Source: Promethearchaeati archaeon (GTDB lineage Archaea; Asgardarchaeota; Heimdallarchaeia; JABLTI01). From it: a DNA stretch of 34,255 bases. The stretch spans positions 1 to 34,255 of the forward strand of contig JABLTI010000031.1 of NCBI GenBank assembly GCA_013166835.1. Reading direction: 5' to 3'. Below, in pieces: positions 8,298 to 16,619 of this stretch (position 1 is the first letter of the stretch; each line of letters opens with the position of its first letter). Under the pieces are notes generated by a model. That model did no database searches. It was not told where the DNA came from and saw only the letters and a list, made by a program, of their open reading frames with translations. Made by a program: the position numbers and the translations under genes.

Positions 8298-9108
8298 TAT
8301 TTTTTTGATTCAGAAGCTCCTCAAATCCACTCAAAGTTATTTTAGGTATATTTTCTATTTCTTCACCTTGAATTAAGAAATTGTAATATTTGATAGATGA
8401 AAACAAATTAGGGAGCTGTGAGAGAAGATTCTTCGCTATTGTGAACTTGATTAGCTTCCTCTCTGAAGCTTGAAAATCTTTATTTTTACTTTCTGGTTTG
8501 GAAAATTTCCCGACAATTTCACCAAAATCATATCCAATCAAAACTACTATTTCTGCTTGCATATTTGCAGCTAAATAAGCAGCTCGATCCCCATCTGTAA
8601 ATCCTCCCAAATTTTTTACTTTGAAAGTCTCCTTTGTTTGGGTTGTCCCGATAATGCCTTCTTTTGGTATTATGTCAGTAATTTCGTTAATTTTTGAAAT
8701 ATTATCTCCATGAGTATGAACAACTACTATTGAACCATTCTCGAAACTCTTTCTAATTGCTGCTATACTTCCATCTAAATCTGTAATAATGACATCAATA
8801 TCAATTCCAAATTTAAGTAGTGCTTTTGTAGCTCCATCAACAGCAACAATAACTACTTCCCGTCTGAAGTTCTTCACCAAATTGAATAACAGCTCAATAG
8901 AGCTTTCAAGAGATGGGCCTGGTCCAAACAAAAGAACAATCTTGTGTTTTATAATTAATTTTAATTTCCTAAACGTTTTTCGTACGGTTTGATAAGTTAA
9001 TCTCGAATGTAAAACATGAGTTGCTATCAGATCCGTTTTTGCATCAATACTAAGCATTGAACAAATTTGCTCATAATCTTTTTTTCTTAATTGCTTGTAT
9101 TGCTTCAT
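8290..9108 (-). CDS. mptE: 6-hydroxymethyl-7,8-dihydropterin pyrophosphokinase (archaeal, DUF115)
   Basis: GPGPSL, VAVDGAT, ITDLDG, VHTHGDN, NLGGFTDGDRAAYLA, GYDFG, KLIKF. Confidence 0.88.
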   Translation of the reverse strand: MKQYKQLRKKDYEQICSMLSIDAKTDLIATHVLHSRLTYQTVRKTFRKLKLIIKHKIVLLFGPGPSLESSIELLFNLVKNFRREVVIVAVDGATKALLKFGIDIDVIITDLDGSIAAIRKSFENGSIVVVHTHGDNISKINEITDIIPKEGIIGTTQTKETFKVKNLGGFTDGDRAAYLAANMQAEIVVLIGYDFGEIVGKFSKPESKNKDFQASERKLIKFTIAKNLLSQLPNLFSSIKYYNFLIQGEEIENIPKITLSGFEELLNQKNTK

Positions 9109-9213
9109 AAATCATCAGACCGATTGCTTACAGTAACTATTATTTCTTTACTTATTAAAAATAATATTCAAATAAATTATTATGAGGTAATCTGTTATTT
9201 AACTGGGATATAT

Positions 9214-9852
9214 ATGTCAAATACAAATCTTCCCTTTCAAAGTGAAATTATCTATGAAGCAATTATTACTACATATAATCAGCAGAATCAACCAAATGCT
9301 GCTCCAATGGGCTTCTCGATTACTAAAGAAAAACAAGTAATAATTCGTCCTTTCAAAGAATCAGATACGTACAAAAATCTACAAGATCAAAAGAAATGCA
9401 TAGTTAATATCACAAATGATCCAGATCTATTTGTGAAAAGTACTTTGTTCCAAGATTTATTGACTGACGAATTTTATATTAAATCCAAAATAATTAATGC
9501 TCCAATTCTGAAAACTTGTAAAGGGAATCATATAACACTAAAAGTCATAAAAGAAAAGGGTGAAGAAGAGAGGGGAATATTCCATTGTGAAATCATCAAA
9601 GTAGAACTAAGCAGAGAAAATATTCAACCACATACCCGAGCTTTCTCATCTTTGATTGAGATCCTAATTCATACTACTCGAGTAATTCATTTTTCCAAGA
9701 CAAGTGGACTAAGTGATCCGAAAGTCAAACAATTAAGAGAATTAATTGAGCATCACTCACAGATAATAACTCGAGTAACAAATAAAGACTCCCAATTTCA
9801 GGAATATCTTGAGAAAATTCAAGAGAAAATATTCCAAGAAGTAGGGGAATAG
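9214..9852 (+). CDS. DUF447 family protein (FMN-binding split barrel-like; methanopterin-associated)
   Basis: YEAIITT...PNAAPMG...PFKESDTYKNL...VNIT...RAFSSLIEILIHTTR; ATG 9214 preferred because the longer frame overlaps the divergent mptE start. Confidence 0.8.
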   Translation: MSNTNLPFQSEIIYEAIITTYNQQNQPNAAPMGFSITKEKQVIIRPFKESDTYKNLQDQKKCIVNITNDPDLFVKSTLFQDLLTDEFYIKSKIINAPILKTCKGNHITLKVIKEKGEEERGIFHCEIIKVELSRENIQPHTRAFSSLIEILIHTTRVIHFSKTSGLSDPKVKQLRELIEHHSQIITRVTNKDSQFQEYLEKIQEKIFQEVGE

Positions 9853-9867
9853 ACAAAACAAGTTAGG

Positions 9868-10923
9868 ATGAGGATTTTGAAACCAGAAAATATATCGTAT
9901 CCAATTGAAGGTTTTTTCATAAAATCAGTTGATGACCTAATTTTCGACGTTAAAGGATTATCTCATCCTCAGGATAGAATTATTTCCTTTGTTAGATATG
10001 TACCTGCAAAATTCTACAAGAATACTCAAAAAATTGTTACTAAAGGTTACTGTAAATTATACGATTTGTTAGAAAGATATGCCTTTTTGCATCAGAATTT
10101 TCCTCAGTATATCTACGAAGATCCAATGGGTCGAGGTTTATTACAAGCTGTGGCAAAAAAGGATATTATAGAAATCTATAATCCTGTCCAAAGACTACAA
10201 CAAATTGCTAAAACAGAAAGAGAAGAACTTGACTCATTAAAAAAACTAGCTCAAGAATTAACAAACAAAATAGTGGAACATTGTGGCATTGATTCAAAAT
10301 ATTTCGGTATTACAGGTTCAATCATGATAGACTTACATGGTAAGAAATCAGATGTTGATTTAGTTGTGTATGGAAAAAGAGATAGTATTAGAGTCTATCA
10401 GGGGATGAACAGCATTTTTGAAAATTACGATAACATATCACGTTATACAGATAACGAATTGAAGACTTTATGGAAAGCTAGAGGGCAAGAAGAGCAGATA
10501 GATTTTGAATCATTTCTCGTAAGCGAGAAGAAAAAGCAATTGCAAGGAACAATATCCAATATAGATTTCTATATTCGACTCGTTTTACTTCCTGCTGAAT
10601 ATTACGAACCATATGATCAGACTAAGATTACTTCTCTAAGTGAACTCGAAATCGAAGCAACTATAGGGAATGATGACTATTCGATTTTTACCCCTTGTAT
10701 TTATCATCTCAAAGATGTCATAATAAAAAATCCGAAAATAAATGAAACAATACCACCTGACAGAATCTTCTCAGTTCGAGGTCGTTACTGTGATATTGCG
10801 AAAACAGGAGATAGAATTACTGCAAAAGGAAAATTAGAGCAAGTAAAAATCACTAATCAGAAAGAGTATTTTCAATTAACATTAGGCACTAATAAAAATG
10901 AATTCATGAAGAAAATACTGTAA
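9868..10923 (+). CDS. Predicted archaeal nucleotidyltransferase (COG1665-like)
   Basis: FDVKGLSHPQDRIISFVRYVP; Pol-beta motif GITGS-x9-SDVDLVVYG; C-terminal OB-like IFTPCIY...GDRITAKGKLE. Confidence 0.8.
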   Translation: MRILKPENISYPIEGFFIKSVDDLIFDVKGLSHPQDRIISFVRYVPAKFYKNTQKIVTKGYCKLYDLLERYAFLHQNFPQYIYEDPMGRGLLQAVAKKDIIEIYNPVQRLQQIAKTEREELDSLKKLAQELTNKIVEHCGIDSKYFGITGSIMIDLHGKKSDVDLVVYGKRDSIRVYQGMNSIFENYDNISRYTDNELKTLWKARGQEEQIDFESFLVSEKKKQLQGTISNIDFYIRLVLLPAEYYEPYDQTKITSLSELEIEATIGNDDYSIFTPCIYHLKDVIIKNPKINETIPPDRIFSVRGRYCDIAKTGDRITAKGKLEQVKITNQKEYFQLTLGTNKNEFMKKIL

Positions 10924-11023: not shown

Positions 11024-11731
11024 ATGACAATAAAAATCGTTCAAGGAACACCAAAGAAGCTATACAAAGAAGTTTCACCCATTGTGAAAGATTGCTTCGA
11101 AGGTGTTTGGACAGAAGAAGACTTGTTACAATTATTAGATTTACCACACGAGAATAATCTCTTTCTGGTAGCATACGATAAAGACAAACCCGTTGGATAT
11201 GCTTTTGTTGTTGCAGATTTTGATGAATCTGTAGATACAAAAATCGCAACCATCCAAGAAATAGGTGTTCTTCCAGAATTCCGCGAATCCGAAATCGCAG
11301 AAGATTTCCTTGACAAAGCCATTCAATTTTCTAAAGTTACTAAAGCAGAATATCTCGAGCAAGTAGTGTCCACTATAGATCAATGGTTAATCCCTGCTTT
11401 CGTAAAGAAAAATCTCAAACCAAGTGAAATAAAAGCTGATAGAGAAATTTCCTCCTTTAATGAAGCAAAATTAATTCTTACTAATATTAAGAAGAATTCT
11501 AAAATCACTGTTTTGATGAATCAATTATTCTTTGAGGATAACGATAAACTAGAGACCCACATAGTAGAAAACGAAGCGGATTTTGAACTCATCAAAAGAA
11601 ATGATCCAATTGCTTTTGGATCAATTATTTCAATAGACAAGGCTGATGATTTAGAAAACACACTTACTGAATTAAAGAACCTAGATATTGAATGGGATGA
11701 AATTGGTATAACATTTAACTATATGTTATAA
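11024..11731 (+). CDS. GNAT-family N-acetyltransferase with an extra C-terminal domain
   Basis: FLVAYDKDKPVGYAF...IQEIGVLPEFRESEIAEDFL (motif A, glycines degenerate); AAGGAG SD. Confidence 0.72.
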   Translation: MTIKIVQGTPKKLYKEVSPIVKDCFEGVWTEEDLLQLLDLPHENNLFLVAYDKDKPVGYAFVVADFDESVDTKIATIQEIGVLPEFRESEIAEDFLDKAIQFSKVTKAEYLEQVVSTIDQWLIPAFVKKNLKPSEIKADREISSFNEAKLILTNIKKNSKITVLMNQLFFEDNDKLETHIVENEADFELIKRNDPIAFGSIISIDKADDLENTLTELKNLDIEWDEIGITFNYML

Positions 11732-11748
11732 AATCTAAAATTGTATTC

Positions 11749-12432
11749 TCATTTGATTTCATTTTCTAATCTTTGAATGGTTTTCCAATAGACTCGTACA
11801 ATTTTCTTTGGCCAAGAATGATTTTTCTTGTAATATTGTTTCAACCAATTAATGGTTTTTTTATCATTAGTACTACCAGAACCAAAATCACCGTATTCTC
11901 TTCTGATTTTTCTTAATTCTTCTAAAGAAGCATTTCTAGCTAAAACTGACCCTGCACCTACAGCTATGAATTCTTTCTCTGCTCTTGGTGTTACAATTAA
12001 TTTAATATTTCGAGTTGAATTATTTTCTTTCAATAAAGAACGCAATTTACCTACTGCTTGAAAATTATCAACTTGGTATTCTGCGATTTTAGGTTGTTTC
12101 TTAGCAATATCTTCAATAGCTCGAAAGAATGCATATGCTTCTGCTTCGTCCATTGACATACCGTTTTTATTGTAATTAGTAAGTACCTCTGCAGAGAGCG
12201 TCTTAATGCTCCAAGCGAGAGATTCTTTCTTAATTAATTCCGCATGAGCTCTGATTTTATTATGAGAAGAATAATTCTTACTATCTTTTATCCCGATTCT
12301 TTCGAATGTTTGTTTTACAGAATCATTTATGGCACAAGCTCCAATTGTCATTGGTCCTATTATCAATCCTCTACCAGCTTCATCTGCCCCAACGACAATT
12401 TTTCCTATCTTTTCCATAATATCATCAACCAT
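11749..12432 (-). CDS. rnhB: Ribonuclease HII (type 2 RNase H), atypical substrate-recognition residues
   Basis: GADEAGRG, GP, KDSK, VDN, AVGAGSVLAR, DFGSG, VRVYWKT. Confidence 0.88.
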   Translation of the reverse strand: MVDDIMEKIGKIVVGADEAGRGLIIGPMTIGACAINDSVKQTFERIGIKDSKNYSSHNKIRAHAELIKKESLAWSIKTLSAEVLTNYNKNGMSMDEAEAYAFFRAIEDIAKKQPKIAEYQVDNFQAVGKLRSLLKENNSTRNIKLIVTPRAEKEFIAVGAGSVLARNASLEELRKIRREYGDFGSGSTNDKKTINWLKQYYKKNHSWPKKIVRVYWKTIQRLENEIK

Positions 12433-13651
12433 TTTTTCTTAATTTCGCAATGAACTGCCCAGGTGTGTCATGCACATCCGGATAGAAATATTGTAGATAT
12501 TCTGATCCTGGGAATCTAGCTGAGCATTTCACTCCAAAGAACAATTCTTGTTTCTCTATGGTAAGATTTAGTTCTTCGATAGCAAATTGAATATTGCCTT
12601 CGTTTTCTGCTGGATCTAAACTATTTGTTGTATAAAATATCGTTCCACCAGGTTTTAGCAACCTTGCAGCTTGTATTAAGTATCTTCTTTGTCTCCTAGA
12701 AAATTCGATTATTTGGTTCTCTCTAATCATCTCAAAGATTTTAGGTCTCAATCCCATATCTGAAGATGGTGGATTGGCTATAATCAAATTAAAGGTCTCA
12801 TCTTTATTATACTTCTTTGCAAACGCGCTAAGATTCAGATTTTCCCGAACAATAGGGGCCTTATACATTCTTAATCGCTTAATGTTCTCATTGAATTTTG
12901 TTAATTTATGAGCTGTACTTCTTTGAGCAACAATTCTCGAATCTTTTACTTCAGAATTCCTTTGCCAAATATGTGTTAAAATTTCTCCAGTATCAGAGTT
13001 CATATCTAATATACGATCTTTTGCCTTAAGATTCACAGAGGAACCTATGAGCATGCTAGGGATTGACTGAGGAATGAATTGCCCACGAAGGTATTCCTTC
13101 AATCCATTTATACTTGGTATTTTATATATGCTCTCAGTGATTTTTATTGCAATGCCTTTTTTCTTTTCCTCAAGTTCGTTTATATTCATCATTAAAATTC
13201 CATTGCCTACAACATCTCCTCTTTTATCGAGCAATGAAATCTCATCACCAATATTAAGATCATCTGTGTATTCAAAATCATTAGACCCTACTCCCACACC
13301 GATTAAGACGCTATTCAATGGTCGTTTATAATTTAAGGTAATCGTTTTCTTTTTTCTTGGGATTACTTCATTTTTAGAAATTTCAAGTAAAATAGCTTCT
13401 TCAAAGTCAGGATGTTGTTTAGCAACAATTTCTTTTTCATTTAATGCTTTGATTAATTTAGAAGCAGTGGTTATTTGTGTGTTTACTCTTACTGGTAAGG
13501 ATTGGGTGTGCTCTTTAAGACTAGCAATTAAAGCACTAGTTCTTTGTAGTCCATACGTAAAGCTTAAGCGTTTAATCAACTCAAAATTAAATTGGTATTT
13601 TTCAATGAGTTGCTCGATTTCGTCATTAATACTCAGAGTAATTCCCTTCAT
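12425..13651 (-). CDS. RsmB/NOP2/NSUN6-like protein with PUA domain; catalytic motifs degenerate
   Basis: VRVNT, PUA insert, QSIPSM, GLRPK, LKPGGTIFYTTNSL..AENE, FYPDVHDTPGQFIAKLRK. Confidence 0.88.
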   Translation of the reverse strand: MKGITLSINDEIEQLIEKYQFNFELIKRLSFTYGLQRTSALIASLKEHTQSLPVRVNTQITTASKLIKALNEKEIVAKQHPDFEEAILLEISKNEVIPRKKKTITLNYKRPLNSVLIGVGVGSNDFEYTDDLNIGDEISLLDKRGDVVGNGILMMNINELEEKKKGIAIKITESIYKIPSINGLKEYLRGQFIPQSIPSMLIGSSVNLKAKDRILDMNSDTGEILTHIWQRNSEVKDSRIVAQRSTAHKLTKFNENIKRLRMYKAPIVRENLNLSAFAKKYNKDETFNLIIANPPSSDMGLRPKIFEMIRENQIIEFSRRQRRYLIQAARLLKPGGTIFYTTNSLDPAENEGNIQFAIEELNLTIEKQELFFGVKCSARFPGSEYLQYFYPDVHDTPGQFIAKLRKNG

Positions 13652-13821
13652 TTTTTTTCTTGAATTTTGTTCTACTAAATCTTTTCTAATTTATTAAACA
13701 TATCATGAATTTATAACAAAATGAGAAAAACGTAATTAAAAAATCTATTTGGTATACTTTTTAGCGTTGAAAGTTTCTTAGTAATTTGTATAGTTTGTAT
13801 TGTTACCTTTCGGAGTGACAA

Positions 13822-14556
13822 ATGGTGCCGGTGTTAAAGAAAGACAAATTCGCGAAATTAATTTCCTATTGTATAGGTAAATCAATACCAATGGATTATC
13901 CTTTGAGAAGAGTAGTCGAGGAAGAGGCTGCAAAGAAAAAATTTGTTCCATTAGGATCATTCTTTCTAAGAGGGTTAGACATGGATGGTGTCATTGCACT
14001 CACACTTCCTAAGAAAGAGTCCTCAGACGGATTAACTCATTACTTATTCGTTTGGTTTTCAAAAGAAGATGTTTCTGTTTCAAGTGAAAAAGCAAATTCA
14101 ACTTTACAAATAAAATCTGTAGATCCTATGCATTTCTCCTTAAGAGGTTCTCCTGAAACATTTGTTAAGGTGATGGGAGAAAGTTCAATGATTCAAAGTA
14201 TCCTGGTTGATTTAGTTGATGATTTGAAATGCCTTGAAAGCTTTACAATTTACAATAAAGAAGGATCCCAAAAGGATGCCCAAGTAGAAATTCCTTCAGA
14301 TCTAATAGGCTCGAGATTTATTGTGCAGACTCTGGTTTCAGAAGAAGCTACCAGTCCAACTCATGGAAAATTTGAACGAATGGAAATAGCTCTGCCACAA
14401 TTAATTGATTTAGCAAATTATTCAATTATGACTGGACTGAAAATGTTCGGTCCAATGAATGAATTCACAAATTTTTGTGCTCAATGCGGACAGAAATTAC
14501 CTCCAGGTAAAAGTGCTTTCTGTATTCATTGTGGTGCCAATTTAGATAAGGAATAA
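13822..14556 (+). CDS. Hypothetical protein with C-terminal zinc ribbon
   Basis: FCAQCGQKLPPGKSAFCIHCGANL; GGAGTG SD. Confidence 0.75.
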   Translation: MVPVLKKDKFAKLISYCIGKSIPMDYPLRRVVEEEAAKKKFVPLGSFFLRGLDMDGVIALTLPKKESSDGLTHYLFVWFSKEDVSVSSEKANSTLQIKSVDPMHFSLRGSPETFVKVMGESSMIQSILVDLVDDLKCLESFTIYNKEGSQKDAQVEIPSDLIGSRFIVQTLVSEEATSPTHGKFERMEIALPQLIDLANYSIMTGLKMFGPMNEFTNFCAQCGQKLPPGKSAFCIHCGANLDKE

Positions 14557-14690: not shown

Positions 14691-16619
14691 ATGAAGTTTC
14701 AACTCTCCATCTCTGCTGGTTTTGCTAAGCTAGCAAAAATTAGAAAAGAAGACATAGTTGTTGAAATACCAACCACAATGTCCATTTCTGAGAAAGATGG
14801 TAGTTCATTTTGGAAAATAGGAGAAGAGGATAATTCCGTCATTATGGGTTTACCAACAAGCAGCTTACATCAACAAAAACCTCAAGTTGGAGATGAGGAT
14901 CTAATATTTGTAGCTAATATACTAATGCAACGTTCTCTAAATCCTTCATTGATTGAAAAACAGTTAGCTAAGACTAAAGAGTCGATGATGGAATACTTGG
15001 AGACTATTCCAAGAGAGAAAGCAATCGTTCTAATCCAACCAACTGATTCTCCTGGAATTTTAAATCAAGTTTTACAATTGATTAAAGATTTTGAAATAAA
15101 AAATATCGCCATAACGAATTTGTTACCATTGCTTAATAATCAAAGACAAGCAGTAAGTTTTCTTGCTGGAATAAATTCATTTCTTCCTGTAGATTCAATA
15201 CTTTACCTTTTATCCCCAGTCCCTCACACCTTTTGGCCAATCTTAGCGTATGCAGGGATTAATGTCTTCAATAATGGATTTGCAGAAATAGCCTCAAAGC
15301 AATCAATGTACTTAACAGATTTCGGAGGTATTGATTTAGTATCTTCTTCAGAGAAGCCTTGTTTTTGTGAAGCATGCAACAGTGTTGATCAAATAATTGA
15401 ATTGTTGATGCCTGATCCTAAGAATTCGGATCAATCTCTATTAGAGAAGCACAATAAGTGGATAACAACTAAAAAAATACGTGAAATCAGAAATGCTCTG
15501 AGAAATAGTGATTTGAGAAGTTATGTTGAACAAATGATTCACTCAAACGTATTTAGTGGGGCAGCATTGCGATTATTAGATAAACAACATAATGATGAGA
15601 TTATTTCAAGAACTCCGACTTGGAAAACAGCTCTCATAAAACACATCACTGAGTATAGTTATTATCGCCCGGAAATCCAAGAATTTCAGCAAAGAATTAG
15701 AGATAGATATCAAATTCGGGGGAGTAAGAAGGTCGTAGTAATATTTCCTTGCTCTGCAAGAAAACCATATTCTTTCTCAAAAAGTCATGGGAAATTCTTG
15801 AACACTTTAGGTTCTATTTCAAATAATAAAAGAGGTTATATTCAAGAATTAATCTTAACCTCTCCGTTAGGAGTAATTCCAAGAGAATTAGAAATGGTTT
15901 ATCCCGCTGCCCATTATGATATACCAGTAACAGGCGACTGGAGTCACGAGGAAAAAGAAATAGCTGTAAAACAATTAACTACTGTTCTTTCTGAAGCAAA
16001 GACCTCAAAATTATCAGTCTTAGCTCATGTAAGCAATGAATACGTTGAACTCTGTAAAGAGGCAGAAAAACAACTTAAGATGAAATTCAAATATACGACC
16101 TCTGGTGATAAAACAACTTCCTCAGAAAGCTTATCTTTGCTTTTCGATGAACTTAATTCAATTTTGAAAGATTTAGAACCTGTAACCTATAGATCGGATA
16201 TGGAACTTATCCAAACAATTGCTGATTATCAATATGGTTCTGGAATCGGTCAAGAAATGTTTAAGGAAAAATGTAGAATAAGAAGTAAACCAAATCAACC
16301 ACAATTTATTATGCAGGACAAGAAGCAAATTGGAGTTATCCAACCGACAACAGGAAAATTATCCCTTACATTAGAAACAGGAAAAACCTTAGCAGAAGAA
16401 GAGAAGTATTTTGTTTTGTTTGATGATGAAGAATTGGAAGGCTCCACACTTTTTGCAGTAGGTGTTGTTGACGCTGATCCTCAAATAAGACCAACTGATT
16501 CCGTAGTTATTCTGAATAAGAAAAGAGAACTCGTAGGAGTTGGAAATGCTATAATTTCTGGAAAAGATATGAAAGAAACAAGGCGTGGACCTGCTGTAAA
16601 GATAAAGCAAAAAGTTTGA
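14691..16619 (+). CDS. arcS: Archaeosine synthase subunit alpha (lysine transferase; degenerate TGT barrel + DUF5591 + PUA)
   Basis: CFCEAC...HN zinc site, PCSARKPYSFSKSH, TSPLGVIPRELEMVYPAAHYDIPVTGDW, IADYQYG, C-terminal PUA GVVDADPQIRPTD. Confidence 0.92.
   Translation: MKFQLSISAGFAKLAKIRKEDIVVEIPTTMSISEKDGSSFWKIGEEDNSVIMGLPTSSLHQQKPQVGDEDLIFVANILMQRSLNPSLIEKQLAKTKESMMEYLETIPREKAIVLIQPTDSPGILNQVLQLIKDFEIKNIAITNLLPLLNNQRQAVSFLAGINSFLPVDSILYLLSPVPHTFWPILAYAGINVFNNGFAEIASKQSMYLTDFGGIDLVSSSEKPCFCEACNSVDQIIELLMPDPKNSDQSLLEKHNKWITTKKIREIRNALRNSDLRSYVEQMIHSNVFSGAALRLLDKQHNDEIISRTPTWKTALIKHITEYSYYRPEIQEFQQRIRDRYQIRGSKKVVVIFPCSARKPYSFSKSHGKFLNTLGSISNNKRGYIQELILTSPLGVIPRELEMVYPAAHYDIPVTGDWSHEEKEIAVKQLTTVLSEAKTSKLSVLAHVSNEYVELCKEAEKQLKMKFKYTTSGDKTTSSESLSLLFDELNSILKDLEPVTYRSDMELIQTIADYQYGSGIGQEMFKEKCRIRSKPNQPQFIMQDKKQIGVIQPTTGKLSLTLETGKTLAEEEKYFVLFDDEELEGSTLFAVGVVDADPQIRPTDSVVILNKKRELVGVGNAIISGKDMKETRRGPAVKIKQKV

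Follow-up and report, generated by a model that had tools for sequence, protein, structure and literature searches.

A conserved second RNase HII with altered specificity residues is encoded beside an NSun6-derived pseudo-methyltransferase in one Heimdallarchaeota family

The contig JABLTI010000031.1 of the Promethearchaeati archaeon assembly GCA_013166835.1, analysed here over 34,255 nucleotides and called the window hereafter, carries on its minus strand two adjoining genes: one for a methyltransferase homologue derived from NSun6 (12425-13651, an open reading frame (ORF) of 408 aa) and one for a lineage-specific paralogue of RNase HII (11749-12432, an ORF of 227 aa). The methyltransferase homologue has lost its catalytic residues while retaining the NSun6 fold, the RNase HII paralogue has kept its metal-binding residues while changing those that govern substrate choice, and both genes are under purifying selection and confined to a single Heimdallarchaeota family. 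We tentatively read the pair as a bicistronic operon specific to this family, in which archaeal RNase HII has given rise to a paralogue that diverged fast, is now conserved and has been neofunctionalised into a nuclease resembling RNase HIII in specificity; an RNA-binding pseudo-methyltransferase, expressed together with this nuclease, may serve to target it. Taken as a whole, this reading is put forward with somewhat less than even confidence. The original prediction had described the locus as a candidate two-gene RNA-processing module in which a dead PUA-methyltransferase is coupled to an altered RNase H. The two ORFs, the kept folds and the deviating residues on which it was built are all borne out by the alignments and structural models described below, whereas the interpretation is supported in part only and the coupling itself stays putative.

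The 227-aa protein belongs to the RNase HII family far above chance. It matches PF01351 (RNase_HII) at 1.4e-31 (110.4 bits; cut-off 25.8), falls 0.1 bit short of the archaeal RNase HII equivalog model TIGR00729 (123.2 bits; cut-off 123.3) and has its best solved relatives among the archaeal RNases HII (1eke, 1e-25; 1uax, 8e-25). Its AlphaFold2 (AF2) model reaches a predicted local distance difference test (pLDDT) score of 93.5, and its top Foldseek match is 1uax, with template modelling (TM) scores of 0.82/0.88. The variant resembles the enzymes of Pyrococcus horikoshii (1uax), Methanocaldococcus jannaschii (1eke) and Thermococcus kodakarensis (1io2) in fold (TM 0.82-0.88), in the positions of the catalytic carboxylates and in the GRG (G20-R21-G22) and DSK motifs. 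The four metal-binding carboxylates are all kept as D17, E18, D122 and E152. Unlike these archaeal enzymes, however, it has Glu for the fourth Asp (E152), Ser for the junction-sensing Tyr (GSGY to GSGS, S187), Leu for the Pro that follows GRG (GRGP to GRGL, L23) and a family-specific DNFQ (122-125) where canonical copies have D-A-x-D. It ends in ...RLENEIK, with no C-terminal QxxLxxFF tail. Judged by these residues, the variant is altered in specificity and not in catalysis, and it is probably an active nuclease, because all four metal-binding carboxylates have been retained.

For comparison, the variant was aligned with 31 canonical RNases HII, all from archaea of its own class. GRGP and GSGY are present in all 31 of them, and the canonical copies of the window's own family invariably (11/11) end in Q-x-x-(L/I)-x-x-F-F. 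We take this tail to be a PIP box, i.e., a PCNA-binding motif; the complex of PCNA with RNase HII (3p83) is among the Foldseek structural matches of the variant. Across the clusters of the variant family, the picture is reversed. GSGS occurs in 47 of the 48 clusters that cover this region (GSGN in the remaining one), DNFQ in 49/49 and the xxFF tail in none. The residue that follows GRG is L, I or T, the fourth carboxylate is either E or D (Asp in 3/10 genome orthologues) and some members have Ser or Ala for the first Gly of GRG. The ratio of nonsynonymous to synonymous substitution rates (dN/dS) amounts to 0.09-0.13 for close pairs of the variant, compared to 0.06-0.12 for canonical RNase HII, which shows purifying selection on the variant.

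The variant is a second copy that exists beside a canonical RNase HII. The window is part of a 3.56-Mb archaeal metagenome-assembled genome (MAG) of 260 contigs that is 84.75% complete; public records label close relatives of its proteins as Candidatus Heimdallarchaeota or Asgard group. Each of the 11 other family genomes encodes a canonical RNase HII at another locus, and nine of them also hold the variant. In the window's own assembly no canonical RNase HII was found and the variant is the one PF01351 match; the canonical gene is probably located in the unassembled 15% of this MAG, because the three nearest relatives, with variants that are 92-94% identical, hold both forms. Six sister families, sampled with 49 genomes, gave no instance of the variant. 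When 185,579 species genomes were scanned for its pattern, nine loci were returned, all from the same family, and a search among 5.8 billion proteins yielded 49 clusters at 54-93% identity, followed by a gap down to at most 32%. Phylogenetically, the variant sequences form a clade of their own (support 100/100), set off by a very long stem of 2.63+0.76 changes per site, and the tree favours no particular sister group. As a side observation, the canonical RNase HII gene of one family genome (G009:C6:4183-4806) has one in-frame TGA inside the match.

The 408-aa protein encoded by the upstream gene is likewise assigned to its family, NSun6, far above chance. Pfam matches comprise PF01189 (Methyltr_RsmB-F; 1e-18), PF22458 (RsmF/B ferredoxin-like; 4.2e-8) and PUA (2.4e-5), the latter being marginal (24.6 bits; cut-off 24.8). 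Among solved structures it is closest to P. horikoshii NSun6 (PH1991; PDB 5zvd), with 4.5e-42 over residues 27-406, followed by human NSUN6, and 5zvd is also the top Foldseek match (TM 0.80/0.84) of its AF2 model (pLDDT 92.2). An N-terminal RRM/ferredoxin-like domain, a PUA domain and a Rossmann methyltransferase-like domain make up the protein, as in NSun6. Passages of the literature on the P. horikoshii enzyme describe it as a methyltransferase that forms 5-methylcytosine at tRNA position 72 (m5C72) by means of two conserved active Cys residues (PMC6393295). The window protein shares its three-domain architecture, its fold and the conserved RPK and ENE motifs, but lacks both catalytic Cys residues and the AAPGGK loop that binds S-adenosylmethionine (SAM). 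When aligned to 5zvd, motif I has changed from AAPGGKT to NSDTGEI (DMNSDTGEI, residues 216-224), the Asp of motif II is R244, motif IV has changed from DxPC (DAPC) to N293-P-P-S296 and motif VI from TCS to T342-N343-S344.

These losses extend to the relatives of the protein. In a motif table of the window protein and 33 relatives at 44-94% identity (n = 34), the motif VI Cys and the AAPGxK form of motif I are missing in all 34 members, while the motif IV Cys is missing in 31/34 and kept in three. Motif IV is variable (NPPS, NPTS, SLPS, SPKN, HAPN, DGPS and others) and never includes an aromatic residue. Since the motif VI Cys is lost in 34/34 and the motif IV Cys in 31/34 members, the protein, as far as its residues tell, cannot make m5C, in line with the dead PUA-methyltransferase of the original prediction. 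Many relatives keep GxG in motif I together with an acid in motif II, and some of them may still bind SAM; the window's own clade has neither feature and looks unable to do so. In contrast to the variable former active-site motifs, the family shows no variation in the RPK that follows motif IV, in the ENE that follows motif VI and at numerous positions of the PUA and RRM domains. With a dN/dS of 0.07-0.14 among close orthologues, the gene is a conserved pseudo-enzyme and not a decaying one. The PUA and RRM-like domains, together with the conserved residues around the former active site, most plausibly make the pseudo-NSun6 an RNA-binding protein. A precedent for an NSUN-family protein working without m5C catalysis may be mammalian NSUN7, reported as catalytically inactive. 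According to the abstract of PMC12804707, NSUN7 retains motifs IV and VI. It further differs from pseudo-NSun6 in being eukaryotic and in having neither a PUA architecture nor a known link to a nuclease.

The distribution of pseudo-NSun6 equals that of the RNase HII variant, i.e., one Heimdallarchaeota family only. Canonical NSun6 with intact motifs was found in just two genomes of this family (G005 and G009). In the NSun6 tree, from which two proteins without PUA domain (L002 and L003) and a truncated one (L027) were left out, the pseudo-NSun6 proteins branch between canonical NSun6 and a second dead group, which comes from sister families; the monophyly of the pseudo-NSun6 proteins themselves is weakly supported (73/50). 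This second group consists of NSun6-like PUA proteins from sister families f2 and f6, i.e., L018 (G036), L024 (G020), L027 (G038), L031 (G042) and L034 (G046). They also lack both catalytic Cys residues, with EPQNS or EPACS as motif IV and THS as motif VI. In f2, a canonical NSun6 is encoded elsewhere in the same genome, and the dead gene is flanked by a convergent gene for an Arf-family small GTPase and a divergent one for a GNAT acetyltransferase, with no RNase HII among its neighbours. No gene order common with the window was found at the loci of this second group.

The layout of the two genes is that of an operon. At the junction (12425-12432, minus strand: ATGGTTGA), the ATG of the RNase HII variant (12432-12430) precedes the TGA of the upstream gene (12427-12425), so that the genes overlap by 8 nt, as originally noted. 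An alternative in-frame ATG of the variant at 12417 would replace this overlap by a gap of 7 nt; residues 1-8 are of low confidence in the AF2 model and start positions vary among orthologues. Both arrangements look operon-like. At six orthologous loci the spacing is -8, -1, +3, +15, +47 and +50 nt. The pair is bounded, again as first described, by a divergent gene upstream, encoding a zinc-ribbon protein (13822-14556, plus strand), and a convergent gene downstream, encoding a GNAT protein (11024-11731, plus strand). The AT-rich intergenic region of 170 nt between the operon and the zinc-ribbon gene (13652-13821) is a candidate promoter region. A TATA-like element, TTTAATAAAT, was read by eye on the minus strand at 13698-13689, 38-47 nt 5' of the pseudo-NSun6 ATG. 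Contigs from two public RNA libraries span the operon junction (X1, 12358-12508, without mismatch; X2, 12392-12563). We consider them a weak hint of co-transcription: such libraries can contain DNA, their contigs give neither strand nor level, and they cover small pieces of the window only (shares of 0.13 and 0.05), the uncovered parts being uninformative. Separately, one metagenome run (X4) contains contigs of related strains with a 1-nt A insertion at 12433 and at 13649, in the poly-A runs just 5' of each start codon.

Among the family genomes, 11 loci contain pseudo-NSun6, and the RNase HII variant lies directly downstream in nine of them. At the other two, the contig ends just past the pseudo-NSun6 gene. 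In G004 the first residues of the variant are visible at the contig end and the rest is on another contig, and in G008 the contig ends 43 nt past the methyltransferase-like gene; neither the variant nor the GNAT gene was found in the G008 genome. Conversely, two collection scans gave 20 loci of the variant, comprising 11 metagenome loci and nine genome loci that repeat the genomes just described. Of these 20, 16 have pseudo-NSun6 immediately upstream, which corresponds to 16/16 assessable loci, as the other four have no upstream sequence. The two genes have the same direction and nearly abut in every assessable locus and are separated in none (0/16). G009 is the one family genome in which neither gene was found; it is uninformative on the pair, because it yielded no flanking zinc-ribbon or GNAT gene either and the whole block may be unassembled or absent. 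A structure prediction of the complex between the two proteins, each with its own alignment and run with no controls, scored 0.00 against a mark of 0.32 and is counted neither for nor against binding.

The altered residues of the variant can be compared with those of type-2 RNases H of known specificity. Passages of Chon et al. (2013; PMC3597693) describe RNase H3 as having a DEDE active site, GTGD instead of GRG-P and Ala for the Tyr, and as unable to cut single ribonucleotides. The same source reports that yeast Rnh201 Y219S is inactive on RNA-DNA (RpD) junctions and more active than Y219A on hybrids with consecutive ribonucleotides (RpR), and that P45D-Y219A cuts RpR only. The two positions changed in these separation-of-function mutants (rnh201 Y219S and P45D-Y219A, named 'RED') are those naturally changed in the variant, Tyr to Ser and Pro to Leu. 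The replacement of Pro is hydrophobic (L, I or T) in the variant family, in contrast to the engineered Asp or Glu that restores RpR activity in yeast. With bacterial RNase HIII (e.g., that of Bacillus stearothermophilus, 2d0a) the variant shares the type-2 fold, the DEDE carboxylates (in the window's clade), the missing junction Tyr and the coexistence with RNase HII where no RNase HI is found. A similar preference for runs of RNA over single embedded ribonucleoside monophosphates (rNMPs) would be expected. Unlike RNase HIII, however, the variant has no N-terminal domain resembling the TATA-binding protein (TBP), as the catalytic domain starts from residue 12 of its 227 aa; it also has GRGL versus GTGD, and Ser versus Ala where the Tyr stood. 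On the rnhC model TIGR00716 the variant reaches 76 bits (cut-off 161), compared to 123 bits on the archaeal RNase HII model. Its likeness to RNase HIII is convergent, and it does not belong to that family.

From these residues we infer nuclease activity, a preference for RpR and, with the gene layout, a partnership, which together make up the favoured reading of a neofunctionalised nuclease with a putative targeting partner. Three links of canonical RNase HII to ribonucleotide excision repair are lost in the variant: Ser stands in for the junction Tyr, GRG is no longer followed by Pro, and the PIP tail that binds PCNA is missing. Freed from replication-coupled repair, it would have specialised on RNA stretches in hybrids, cleaving inside the ribonucleotide runs of R-loops and primers and not at single embedded rNMPs. 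It may thereby cover the role of the type-1 RNase H (PF00075, PF13456), which was found in 0/12 family genomes, compared to 15 and 14, respectively, of all 61 genomes searched. In bacteria, according to passages of Kochiwa et al. (2007; PMC1950709), RNases HI and HIII tend to exclude each other, and a pattern of HII plus HIII without HI is described, which the family genomes would fit. The product of the first gene is a descendant of the tRNA m5C72 methyltransferase NSun6 that kept its RRM-like, PUA and Rossmann domains; because both the catalytic Cys residues and, in this clade, the SAM-binding motifs are lost, it would be able only to bind nucleic acid, most likely RNA, and not to methylate it. 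Co-transcribed with the nuclease, it may bring or hold the substrate, a role in trans like that of the TBP-like domain of RNase HIII. Similarly, eukaryotic RNase H2 (catalytic A, non-catalytic B and C subunits) offers the common idea of a type-2 RNase H relying on non-catalytic partners. Here, in contrast, the partnership is putative, the partner would have an NSun6 fold and not that of B or C, and H2A keeps the Tyr and does perform ribonucleotide excision repair. On the side of the nuclease, the analogy to RNase HIII agrees with the DEDE carboxylates, the lost junction Tyr and the type-1 RNase H not found; on the side of the partner, which is related to neither the TBP-like domain nor the H2 subunits B and C, the originally proposed analogies are functional only.

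Several observations weigh against this reading. The nuclease could be weak or inactive, because, as stated in passages of PMC3597693, the Tyr-to-Ala exchange in yeast leaves less than 0.1% of the activity whatever the substrate, and Y219S restores it only partially. The parallel to RNase HIII is also incomplete, because the variant keeps GRG and follows it with L, I or T and not with Asp, Glu or Ser; in RNase H3 and the yeast P45D mutant it is an acidic residue (Asp or Glu) at this position that gave RpR recognition (same source). The type-1 RNase H not found in the family is weak support, because it was not found in 16 of the 18 genomes of sister family f2 either, which has no variant. Pseudo-NSun6 proteins can have roles without this nuclease, given that the dead NSun6-like genes of the sister families adjoin no RNase HII. 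In addition, all genomes compared are MAGs with a completeness of 64-92%. Finally, a block of approximately 10 genes (DUF447, nucleotidyltransferase-like, GNAT, zinc-ribbon and ArcS genes among them, with about six beyond the zinc-ribbon and GNAT genes) is syntenic across the same loci. Conserved adjacency is therefore weak evidence of coupling, because common descent alone predicts it in a narrow family, and co-occurrence amounts to a sample of one, because there was a single evolutionary origin. Co-occurrence and adjacency across genomes had been proposed as a check on the module; the two genes do share the same single lineage and adjoin wherever this can be assessed, but synteny and single origin confound both as a proof of coupling. 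The case for coupling then lies in the operon layout and in the occurrence of both genes in the same lineage and nowhere else, next to the weak hint from the junction-bridging RNA contigs.

The synteny also suits two proteins that work independently, i.e., a stand-alone second RNase H and an unrelated RNA-binding or chaperone pseudo-NSun6, which share a transcript by convenience or through inherited gene order. Such independence is possible, if rather doubtful in our view. Adjacency is then just as shared ancestry predicts, and dead NSun6-like genes do exist in sister families without an adjoining RNase HII, but this leaves aside that both gene families are confined to one lineage and that the genes, always in the same direction, abut or overlap (-8 to +50 nt) and are never separated. 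An unlikely alternative assigns the pair to RNA processing. Pseudo-NSun6 would then recognise a tRNA-like acceptor stem, a CCA end or another structured RNA, and the nuclease, freed of the Tyr that excludes a 2'-OH at position +1, would cut the RNA of RNA/RNA duplexes or DNA-bound RNA, e.g., tRNA-primed or tRNA-linked hybrids. In P. horikoshii, passages of PMC6393295 state, NSun6 depends on the CCA end and the acceptor stem and relies on its PUA domain for this purpose. Within the family, the PUA and RRM-like domains are indeed invariant, as are RPK and ENE by the former active site, yet the PUA match is marginal, as given above, and the CCA-contacting residues N98, Y112 and E174 of P. horikoshii NSun6 are not confidently mappable, owing to a numbering offset and an uncertain local alignment. 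Moreover, we know of no type-2 RNase H that cleaves RNA without a DNA strand opposite or adjacent. A bolder version, which we hold to be similarly improbable, is a two-protein RNA-targeting nuclease made from two housekeeping enzymes: the dead NSun6 docks on a tRNA-type acceptor stem or CCA end, or flips out a cytosine that stays unmethylated, and presents the RNA or an attached RNA/DNA junction to a derivative of RNase HII that, with the junction Tyr lost, tolerates ribose on both sides of the cut. If true, this would be an archaeal RNA-processing or quality-control activity without a described counterpart, in the archaeal group closest to eukaryotes.

Two further readings concern the chemistry of the individual proteins. 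Both might be pseudo-enzymes, the RNase HII paralogue serving as a sensor or protector that binds hybrids or junctions but leaves them uncut, in a nucleic-acid-binding complex with the pseudo-methyltransferase. The near inactivity of yeast and human Tyr-to-Ala mutants on all substrates points in this direction, as do those variant members with Ser or Ala for the first Gly of GRG, a change that lowers the activity of the Thermotoga maritima, yeast and human enzymes (both in passages of PMC3597693). The conservation of four carboxylates across approximately 50 clusters, with D/E exchange at the fourth only, would be unexpected without catalysis, and we consider this reading very improbable. Least probable of all in our estimation is an NSun6-like protein that still acts as a methyltransferase with another chemistry or target. 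NPPS does recall the amino-methyltransferase motif (D/N)PP(Y/F), D-x-x-V-G-x-G-E serves as motif I in many relatives, and several of them, with GxG in motif I and an acid in motif II, match the generic SAM-methyltransferase families PF13847 and PF05175. Motif IV is, however, not conserved in the family and without aromatic residue, and the window's clade has NSDTGE as motif I and Arg in place of the motif II acid.

The surroundings of the pair are conserved as well. The divergent zinc-ribbon protein has 244 aa, of which the C-terminal zinc ribbon is the sole recognised part; it is 70-95% conserved across the family, and its gene is always divergent from the operon. It is followed by the gene for ArcS, the archaeosine synthase alpha subunit (14691-16619, plus strand), which matches NF040592 at 1.1e-127, just below the cut-off, and comprises DUF5591, TGT_C2 and PUA domains. 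ArcS is a further PUA-domain tRNA-modification gene, located two genes from the pair and syntenic across the family. On the other side, a conserved run on the plus strand consists, from 5' to 3', of a DUF447 flavin-reductase-like protein (9091-9852), a 351-aa protein (9868-10923) with a weak nucleotidyltransferase match and no NCBIfam family, and the GNAT protein of 235 aa, the C-terminal half of which (approximately 120 aa) has no family assignment. The listed TTG start of the DUF447 ORF is probably too far upstream, because the Pfam match begins at residue 55. A known anti-phage defence system was considered and rejected, since PADLOC gave no defence-system match for the pair or its two neighbours. 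The PADLOC-DB models have no match for the RNase HII variant, the GNAT protein or the zinc-ribbon protein, and those for the methyltransferase-like protein are generic methyltransferase-fold matches only (mad2, 1.7e-8; MTase_II, 7.8e-4).

In the full-text literature on Asgard and Heimdallarchaeota RNase HII paralogues and on inactive NSUN-type proteins, no description of the pair was found. In the main text of one Asgard replication paper, RNase HII is named only in a figure legend on the origin of eukaryotic RnhB; its supplements, which were not covered, could list paralogues. Archaea are generally described with a single RNase HII, as reported for all 27 archaea surveyed in passages of Kochiwa et al. 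(PMC1950709). One Heimdallarchaeota family, however, has a second, conserved type-2 RNase H. The natural substitutions in this variant affect the same two positions that were engineered in yeast to split R-loop removal from ribonucleotide excision repair. If the predicted specificity is true, the variant would have reached, naturally and independently, the same division of tasks that bacteria achieve with RNase HIII, and it would be a ready-made tool to tell the two RNase H2 activities apart. If pseudo-NSun6 does target the nuclease, the pair would represent a new means by which an RNase H selects its substrate.

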